Source of the DNA: Octopus sinensis
Taxonomy: Eukaryota
Reading direction: 5' to 3'
Length of the DNA stretch: 64,000 nt
Assembly (NCBI RefSeq): GCF_006345805.1
Contig: NC_042998.1
Span: 135,222,001 to 135,286,000, forward strand
Shown: piece by piece, positions 57,941 to 62,859 of the stretch
Layout of the letters: each line of letters begins with the position of its first letter
How positions within the stretch are numbered: position 1 is the first letter of the stretch
Translations under genes and position numbers: made by a program
The notes under the pieces: generated by a model
Databases searched by the model: none
What the model was told of the DNA's origin: nothing
Seen by the model: only the letters and a program-made list of their open reading frames with translations

Positions 57941-58325
57941 GTGGAGGCGCAATGGCCCAGTGGTTAGGGAAGCGAACTCGCGGTCATAGGATCGCGGTTT
58001 CGATTCCCAGACCGGGCGTTGTGAGTGTTTATTGAGCGAAAACACCTAAAGCTCCACGAGGCTCCGGCAGGGGATGGTGGTGATTCCTGCTGTACTCTTT
58101 CACCACAACTTTCTCTCACTCTTACTTCCTGTTTCTGTTGTACCTGTATTTCAAAGGGCCGGCCTTGTCACTCTCTGTGTCACGCTGAATATCCCCGAGA
58201 ACTACGTTAAGGGTACACGTGTCTGTGGAGTGCTCAGCCACTTACACGTTAATTTCACGAGCAGGCTGTTCTGTTGATTCGGATCAACCGGAACCCTCGT
58301 CGTCGTAACCGACGGAGTGCTTCCA
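57941..58325 (+). mobile_element. SINE family C, full length
   Basis: tRNA-like head with A/B boxes; apparent TSD ACGTAATACTCTA at 57928-57940 and about 58331-58343. Confidence 0.9.
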
Positions 58326-60943: not shown

Positions 60944-61012
<69 letters not shown>

Positions 61013-61089
61013 TGCAGCGTGGAAAGTGTTTATAAGCCATTTAAGAAATACACAAAAGCCGTTAGATTCACTTCAACATTTAAATTTAA

Positions 61090-61140
61090 TTTGTCAAAAT
61101 ATTTTCGTCGCTTTGAGACCGCGACCTGTTCACTGACAAA
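61090..61140 (-). ncRNA. Type I hammerhead-like ribozyme with G3:C8 core variant
   Basis: TTTGTCA-GTGAACA-G-GTCGC(GGTCTCAAA)GCGAC-GAAA-ATAT-TT-TGACAAA. Confidence 0.7.
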
Positions 61141-61211
61141 ATTCCGTGCAGCACGGAATTTTGTCAGTGAACAGGTCGCTGTAATATATATATATATATA
61201 TAATATATATA

Positions 61212-61270
<59 letters not shown>

Positions 61271-61271
<1 letters not shown>

Positions 61272-61653
61272 ATGATAAATATCAAAGTGAGTTATATACA
61301 GTAGCGGTAACACATCGTGACGTATATTTGCCATCTCAATATGGCTACCCCTAAGGGTGGATGCTACTGTAGTTTTTAGCCCCAGGAGGACACACTCCTC
61401 CAGCTGGCCATAGACACACTTTCTGTGTCCTGTCAGTATTTGCAAAGGGAAGTCATCCTTCCCGTCTTCAACTTATGATACACACGGACTCGAGTTTCGA
61501 GGTATTGACCTCTCGTCAGCGTGTGACAATCATAGTTGTCGGCGAGAATTAGATTTCCTTCACCCACCCTTAGGGGTAGCCATATTGAGATGGCAAATAT
61601 ACGTCACGATGTGTTACCGCTACTGTATATAACTCACTTTGATATTTATCATT
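61271..61653. mobile_element. 383-bp element with perfect 90-bp inverted ends enclosing a hammerhead ribozyme
   Basis: 61271-61360 is the reverse complement of 61564-61653; left flank is (TA)n. Confidence 0.8.
61469..61538 (-). ncRNA. Canonical type I hammerhead ribozyme with extended stem I
   Basis: CAACTATGAT-TGT-CACACG-CTGACGA-GAGGT(CAAT)ACCTC-GAAA-CTCGAG-TC^CGTGTG-T-ATCATAAGTTG; all core positions intact, GUC cleavage triplet. Confidence 0.92.
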
Positions 61654-62501: not shown

Positions 62502-62859
62502 CGTGGAGGCGCAATGGCCCAGTGGTTAGGGCAGCGGACTTGCGGTCGTAGGATTGCACTTTCGATTCCAGACAGAGCGTTGTGAGTGTTTATTGAGCGA
62601 AAACACCCAAAAGCTCCACGAAGCTCCACTAGGGGGTGGTGGCGAACCCTGCTGTACTCTTTCACCACAACTTTCTCCCTGTTTCTATTGTACCTTATTT
62701 CAAAGAGCCAGCCTTGTCACACTCTGTATCACACTGAATCTCACCGAGAACTACGTTAAGGGTATATGTGTCTGTGGAGTACTCAGTCACCTGCACGAGC
62801 AGGCTGTTCCGTTGATTGGATCAACTGGAACCCTCGTCGTCGTAACCGACGGAGTGCCA
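62502..62859 (+). mobile_element. SINE family C
   Basis: Homologous to 57941-58325; flanked by ATGAAGCATA repeats (TSD-like). Confidence 0.9.

Follow-up and report, generated by a model that had tools for sequence, protein, structure and literature searches.

A hammerhead-like motif in a truncated Penelope-like element copy

The window, by which we mean the whole 64,000-nt stretch of Octopus sinensis DNA analysed here, contains a 141-base, 5′-truncated pLTR copy of a Penelope-like retrotransposon (PLE) of a family that we call A (61009..61149, minus strand). This copy holds a hammerhead-like motif, a short 5′ UTR and the first ORF codons, and it terminates at family A's fixed short end, where it adjoins a (TA)n microsatellite (60944..61008) that is the likely insertion target. 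The opposite flank is also a (TA)n microsatellite (61185..61270). An inverted partner copy with the 5′ half of the hammerhead lies on the plus strand (61147..61184); it comprises a 29-bp arm (61151-61179) followed by five bases matching the end of the family tail, and is likely a second copy that, we infer, has suffered an internal deletion. When recomputed, 61121-61149 is the exact reverse complement of 61151-61179 over all 29 bp, with one central base between the two arms, as an earlier note on this DNA had described. That note had likened the palindrome to an inverted PLE terminus, which proved apt: this is a 5′-truncated pLTR copy with an inverted partner, and its parent carries an RT/GIY-YIG ORF.

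The motif runs from 61140 to 61090 on the minus strand. The 7-nt 5′ arm of stem I (61134..61140) forms seven Watson-Crick pairs with the 3′ arm (61090..61096), in which a common A-to-G variant at 61094 retains its pair as U-G. Then follow the core strand G3-U4-G5-A6-A7-C8-A9 (61127..61133; G3 at 61133, C8 at 61128) and, at the A9/G10.1 junction, an unpaired extra G (61126), a trait of the minimal hammerheads of Penelope elements. Stem II has 5 bp (GUCGC/GCGAC, 61125-61121 with 61111-61107, including G10.1-C11.1) and, with its 9-nt loop II, spans 61107..61125. It is followed by G12-A13-A14 (61106-61104), the 6-nt palindrome AAUAUU (A15.1 to U16.1, 61103-61098), through which stem III would form between two copies, and U17 (61097) of a UUU triplet. 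Hammerhead numbering places the predicted cut between 61097 and 61096. The ATG that opens the long frame in a full-length copy (L363) corresponds to 61038..61040, 56 nt 3′ of that cut. Every part that the earlier note had listed, namely the 7-bp stem I, the 5-bp stem II, GAAA, AAUAUU and the core GUGAACA, was found, but its description lacked the strand, which is minus, and the extra unpaired G at 61126.

With 7-bp and 5-bp stems around the core and an open end at stem I, the motif has the type I minimal PLE form. It departs from the canonical core C3-U4-G5-A6-N7-G8-A9 at G3 and C8, and retains U4, G5, A6 and A9. Watson-Crick complementarity between positions 3 and 8, G12-A13-A14, A15.1-U16.1, a non-G at 17 and G10.1-C11.1 are all present, as are the extra base between 9 and 10.1, a palindromic stem III and, in L363, two copies per element. 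A hammerhead descriptor allowing any Watson-Crick 3-8 pair found two matches in the window, this motif and a canonical one at 61519, and none in 150 simulated windows of equal dinucleotide make-up. The Rfam model Hammerhead_1 (RF00163) matched the canonical neighbour and left the G3-C8 motif unmatched at E ≤ 1. The fold of the motif was only modestly better than that of shuffled sequences (z of −1.7 and −2.5).

The neighbour is a canonical type I hammerhead (61481-61525, minus strand; C3-G8, GUC triplet, 8-nt palindrome) 390 bases away, scoring 32.2 bits against the Rfam gathering threshold of 34. It sits in a 383-bp unit (61271-61653) of the same (TA)n tract. The unit has inverted arms of 93 bp and is probably the terminus of a different Penelope-like family, and its hammerhead provides a natural control for the G3-C8 motif. 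The window also holds two copies of a tRNA-headed SINE-like repeat (57941-58320 and 62503-62857), 4.56 kb apart.

The parent is a Penelope-like element with two G3-C8 families

Walking upstream through longer copies led across a ∼1 kb microsatellite-rich stretch into coding pieces for RT and endonuclease, and a protein search recovered closely related copies with long open frames. The parent of one such family, B, has a 973-residue frame with RT, a C-x3-C-x2-C linker and a GIY-YIG endonuclease, and its hammerhead lies ∼1 kb after the stop codon. As in EN+ PLEs, this single ORF places RT before a GIY-YIG domain with CCHH residues (protein P0001, motifs read by eye), and the linker fits the Zn-finger-like CX2-5CxxC pattern of the Neptune/Nematis clade. 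A Pfam search of P0001 gave no match. Its nearest named homologues, among 120 listed, are labelled reverse transcriptase, and the nearest named protein, from Octopus vulgaris, is nested in a further family, C. The 30 best endonuclease matches, all of family B, are 96-100% identical, and family B is young. The motif was present at 24 of these 30 loci and was always G3-C8, with the same stems as in family A and a different loop II. The window copy belongs to family A; the ORF copies of that family show more decay and share 85-87% DNA identity with B.

The full-length copy L363 has two direct hammerheads 4361 nt apart with a frameshifted ORF between them; the long frame opens 3′ of the motif, and a stop codon directly precedes its ATG. 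Two end points are fixed: 36 of 93 copies stop at a short end, as the window copy does, and 52 of 93 after a ∼60-nt tail, a pattern described as the signature of two priming sites (PMC11167929). TA-rich sequence flanks 29 of the 36 short-end copies. Partial pLTR tandems, inverted 5′-truncated copies and an optional tail are likewise features of EN+ PLEs found here. A non-LTR retrozyme was rejected as the source, the window copy being single with an inverted partner and the parent encoding its own RT. Same-strand pairs 1-5 kb apart, considered as candidate full elements, proved to be local duplications.

Three further arrangements were seen. Short tandems of the pLTR unit with ∼170-400 nt spacing occur at L350, L351 and L352, each with the G3 motif and some with C8G; these are possibly early retrozyme-like arrays. 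An identical inversion junction recurs in 16 of 93 sampled copies (L251, L254, L256, L282, L294, L309 and others), indicating that a composite pLTR palindrome was amplified as a unit within a larger repeat. Contig C20 is unusually dense in family A copies of long 5′ extent over ∼1-8 Mb (17 of 100 listed matches).

G3-C8 is the family state

The earlier note had proposed to establish whether G3 and C8 are fixed in the consensus, and they are. A DNA search of the 2.72-Gb genome returned 1029 candidates, of which 40 were scored, and a 35-base pattern that accepted any letter at positions 3, 7 and 8 had 1031 exact genomic matches. Among the 100 of these that were listed, 86 had both G3 and C8 (counted by eye), five departed at position 3, nine at position 8 and none at both, and no C3+G8 copy was found. 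Of 53 matches with a non-G at position 3, seven had C3 and none of these had G8; when both positions were forced to differ, four matches remained genome-wide, none of them C3-G8. Copies chosen instead by a word downstream of the motif, which occurs 3723 times in the genome, had G3 in 54/55 and C8 in 49/54 of those reaching these sites (67 of 93 copies used, with family B and one composite repeat left out). In all four public runs, from three other related organisms, no alternative letter reached 3% at 61133 or 61128. Variants that are common in the family fall in loop II, outside the stems or where pairing is preserved. Together, these results show that G3-C8 is the state of the family rather than the product of decay in one copy.

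The 3-8 pair covaries across sister families

The same genome holds two sister families, C and D, with 55-59% amino-acid identity over the region used for the tree (52% for one decayed copy) and hammerheads at the same place in the element as families A and B. In family C the core pair is C3-G8, position 9 is a C and stem II has 6 bp; its pattern had 2417 matches, with C3-G8 in 96 of the 100 listed. Since family C has C at 9, cores in this clade tolerate departures. Family D has U3-A8 (1856 matches; U3-A8 in 93 of the 100 listed) and a stem II of GUUGC/GCAAC where family A has GUCGC/GCGAC, so that both sides of one pair have changed. Across families A-D, whose ORFs align at just 63-65% in DNA, U4, G5, A6, G10.1-C11.1, G12-A13-A14, A15.1-U16.1 and U17 are constant, and all four families share the extra G. 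Copies of family C, which is young with long open frames, have a non-palindromic AGAACU for stem III (e.g. after the ORF of L172), and those of family D a 4-nt palindrome and a UUU triplet (e.g. L180, ∼770 nt past the endonuclease match).

Seventeen related loci in metagenome contigs were scanned without regard to 3-8 pairing, and a post-ORF hammerhead was found in five, with C3-G8 in L213, L217 and L226 and U3-A8 in L214 and L215. The hammerhead-like motif of L213 (4973-5035) has a 6-nt palindrome and U15.1-A16.1 in place of A15.1-U16.1, for which reason it was read by eye. Scans behind L216, L218, L219 and L220, contigs that end early or differ, found no hammerhead, and neither did a scan behind the degraded ORF of L181. 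In a quick IQ-TREE tree of 38 rows, built without named references and without L064 and L109, which were too short, the families of this genome form one clade (support 100) and C and D group together (99); the branch of L226 is long and its placement unsure. G3-C8 is restricted to families A and B, which share a branch 0.29 amino-acid changes per site long, and therefore arose once here. Positions 3 and 8 are paired in all nine lineages in which a hammerhead was seen, namely families A-D and the five metagenome contigs.

The earlier note had argued that two compensating core changes are unlikely to result from decay. For a single lineage this argument is weak, because three of the nine letter combinations pair once both positions have changed; the comparison of sister families is the stronger form of it. 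Since the sisters have C3-G8 or U3-A8 and different but still paired stems, the 3-8 pair covaries. The identity between A and B alone fails to single out the hammerhead, because the sequence 3′ of it is about equally conserved. The earlier note had inferred selection for function; selection on the structure is well supported by the sisters, C-G and U-A families whose stems covary, and pairing at 3-8 is likely kept by selection.

Most insertions derive from uncut RNA with a probable capped start

The 5′ ends of 93 copies showed no excess at the predicted cut (1/93), and the single copy ending there is an inversion junction with shared bases. Of the 93 copies, 35 end 10-20 nt before stem I, near a likely upstream start, which points to uncut RNA as the main template; seven extend further. 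Among copies starting at the AG of AGAUGCAG, the preceding letter is G in 15 of 25, where the template has a pyrimidine (three locus sets pooled, a few loci sharing a junction; binomial p ∼4e-6 at 18% G). Loci with the untemplated G include L004, L026, L248, L253, L260, L329 and L331. An untemplated G before the AG suggests that transcripts are capped and begin 16 nt ahead of stem I, in which case the motif would fill the leader between start site and ATG. The insertions thus seemingly record an RNA cap, by which a promoter can be mapped from DNA alone. Splicing at the same AG was considered and rejected: four sets of RNA-like contigs contained no such joint, and the capped start fits better. 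Contigs of these RNA-like runs do cover the motif, the RNA origin of the runs being a guess.

Folding and alternative explanations

In the lowest-energy monomer, G3 is paired with U17 as a wobble. In a model that ignores tertiary contacts, a hammerhead-shaped dimer was calculated at −27.0 kcal/mol; two separate monomers reach −29.0 and the most stable dimer −32.0. The hammerhead-shaped dimer is therefore reachable but not favoured unless tertiary contacts or a protein assist it. Read-through of the window copy, in either direction, would give a hairpin with 29 bp and −53 kcal/mol; this copy is itself likely inactive because the 5′ half of its hammerhead would be held in that hairpin by the inverted partner. 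We consider that the hammerhead of the G3-C8 family likely still works as a weakly self-cutting RNA whose folding would depend on a second copy and probably on the element protein (probability roughly 0.6). That selection acts on the fold appears very probable from the comparative data, and cleavage by the motif is plausible, with the odds somewhat in its favour; selection for cleavage is only inferred.

The most serious alternative, to which we give about one chance in four, is that the fold is selected without any useful cutting, as a protein binding site, a structure for packaging or priming, or an internal promoter, with 3-8 pairing kept for shape. The insertions carry no footprint of cleavage and their likely capped 5′ end lies upstream of an intact motif. 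The motif occupies the interval from the likely start to the ATG, the expected position of an internal promoter (review PMC6765202). G3-U17 pairing competes with the active fold, and hammerhead mutants are reported to have no effect on insertion in vitro (PMC11167929). Against this, cleaved RNAs could exist without leaving genomic copies, the residues G5, A6, G12, A13 and A14 and a non-G at 17 are constant in all families, and three different 3-8 pairs favour the geometry of an RNA active site over a DNA sequence.

It is improbable, although less easily set aside than what follows, that the hammerhead died in the ancestor of A and B and that G3 and C8 then drifted in the master element, their pairing being coincidental. 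The change from C-G or U-A to G-C requires an unpaired intermediate, G3-C8 arose once here, and after two changes one outcome in three pairs by chance. On the same 0.29-change branch, however, the other invariant core bases did not change and stems I and II are still paired; moreover, single changes would be expected to be commoner than double ones, and yet none of the nine lineages is unpaired at 3-8.

Very unlikely is an origin of the letters at 3 and 8 in protein coding or a splice signal rather than in RNA structure. A branch-point-like motif, a pyrimidine tract and the AG ∼16 nt before stem I do occur in longer copies, and a short open frame crosses the motif, but the long frame begins after it with a stop directly before the ATG, any frame across the motif would be shifted by the one-base difference in loop II length between A and B, no spliced joint was seen in the contigs of four RNA-like runs, and no conserved peptide or exon running through the motif turned up. 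Least likely of all is that the window copy is a decayed member of a canonical-core family or a chance look-alike in a MITE-like palindrome: its 29-bp palindrome does dominate the local fold and it has no Rfam hammerhead match, but the pattern searches at positions 3 and 8 rule out a canonical consensus (no C3-G8 copy in tests of 1031 matches), the simulated windows held no look-alike, and inversion points vary among copies, as in 5′-truncated retrotransposon copies.

A possible route to G3-C8 and its implications

In the proposed mechanism, transcripts begin ∼16 nt ahead of stem I, and pairing through the AAUAUU palindrome would join the 5′ copy of a transcript to its 3′ copy, or one RNA to another. 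The paired copies would swap stem I strands to form two active sites, in which the G-C pair would hold the 2′-OH of position 8 in place, at a rate lower than with C-G. Cutting could then strip cap and leader from the RNA, 56 nt upstream of the start codon, or shorten transcripts of tandem copies. Since uncut RNA gave rise to most of the inserted copies, cutting is likely to be slow or to depend on conditions. As G3 makes only a wobble with U17 and would make a full pair with C17, the U17 of this clade may have permitted the swap; within a dimer, the core of one RNA would cut the site of its partner, which might have sheltered an unpaired intermediate. The complete proposal, of a natural functional G3-C8 hammerhead that is fixed in a young animal retrotransposon with thousands of copies, is one of three Watson-Crick states among sister families of one genome, and flipped through a dimer-covered inactive intermediate with U17 allowing the change, is tentative, and we rate it somewhat below even odds.

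RNAs of this kind, and the elements that host them, are already known; what is new relative to the literature searched is the natural, family-wide G-C swap. The 3-8 pair is a central contact of active hammerheads, and in that literature its G-C form comes from mutants, with natural variation reaching as far as U-A. A large, recently active family fixed for G-C beside C-G and U-A sisters gives this pair phylogenetic support, and families A-D offer a ready natural comparison of what the hammerhead does in Penelope-like elements. Rfam and sequence descriptors miss real hammerhead families. If the reading holds, searches for CUGANGA overlook a whole class, and some 'hammerhead-less' retroelements may carry one. 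The impact is bounded: biochemical work had already made such a swap predictable, and any cleavage may prove weak.

Comparison with known hammerheads and Penelope-like elements

The parent resembles the Neptune/Nematis-type EN+ PLEs of Craig et al. 2021 (PMC8557442) in its RT, Zn-finger-like linker and C-terminal GIY-YIG with CCHH, and also in its partial tandems, inverted 5′-truncated copies, optional tail and microsatellite targets. Its tail is longer (∼60 nt versus 30-40), and the likeness is one of features, with the clade assignment provisional.

Minimal type I hammerheads in the pLTRs of metazoan PLEs were described by Cervera and De la Pena 2014 (PMC4209133). These carry an extra base between 9 and 10.1 and cleave weakly as dimers even with canonical cores. 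The G3-C8 family shares with them the type I form, the extra base, G10.1-C11.1 and a short palindromic stem III, together with the pLTR location, thousands of solo truncated copies and frequent U17. The small PLE hammerhead variants of Lunse, Weinberg and Breaker likewise have a diminished palindromic stem III and dimer cleavage (as reported in review PMC6765202). The UUU triplet, which the earlier note had called a poor substrate, is no special defect: U17 occurs in 24 of the 56 published representatives, counted by eye, and UUU in one of these, from Crassostrea gigas (PMC4209133). At positions 3 and 8 the same 56 have C3-G8 (53), U3-A8 (2) or U3-G8 (1) and never G3-C8, unlike octopus families A and B. 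A descriptor built on their consensus core, CUGANGAH, would miss the G3-C8 family. No natural G3-C8 or octopus hammerhead was found in the literature searched, a scope that excludes the variant set of Lunse et al.

Natural covariation to U3-A8 was reported by Perreault et al. 2011 (PMC3088659), who in the passages used describe U3-A8 only, and in the Schistosoma Cercyon elements (PMC4209133). There the same tertiary pair is compensated, and family D is such a case. U-A retains a pyrimidine at 3 and a purine at 8, and a U-G wobble offers a path to it, whereas G-C flips both and has no wobble route from C-G or U-A.

The earlier note had stated that positions 3 and 8 form a tertiary pair and that the double swap restores at least partial activity; both statements are in print (PMC11167929, PMC9901934). 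C3G/G8C partly restores cleavage by the Anolis Poseidon hammerhead, which cuts only with the element protein and is dispensable for insertion in vitro (PMC11167929), and a full pairwise screen found C3G/G8C to be the sole rescuing double change in that core region (PMC9901934). According to Kalweit and Hammann, who do not show the data, the activity of G3-C8 is higher when position 17 is G than when it is C (PMC3884650). These laboratory mutants (PMC11167929, PMC9901934 and review PMC8495972) carry the same swap and have partial activity; they are engineered changes among other stems and triplets, whereas the octopus family combines the swap with U17, the extra base and a 6-nt palindrome.
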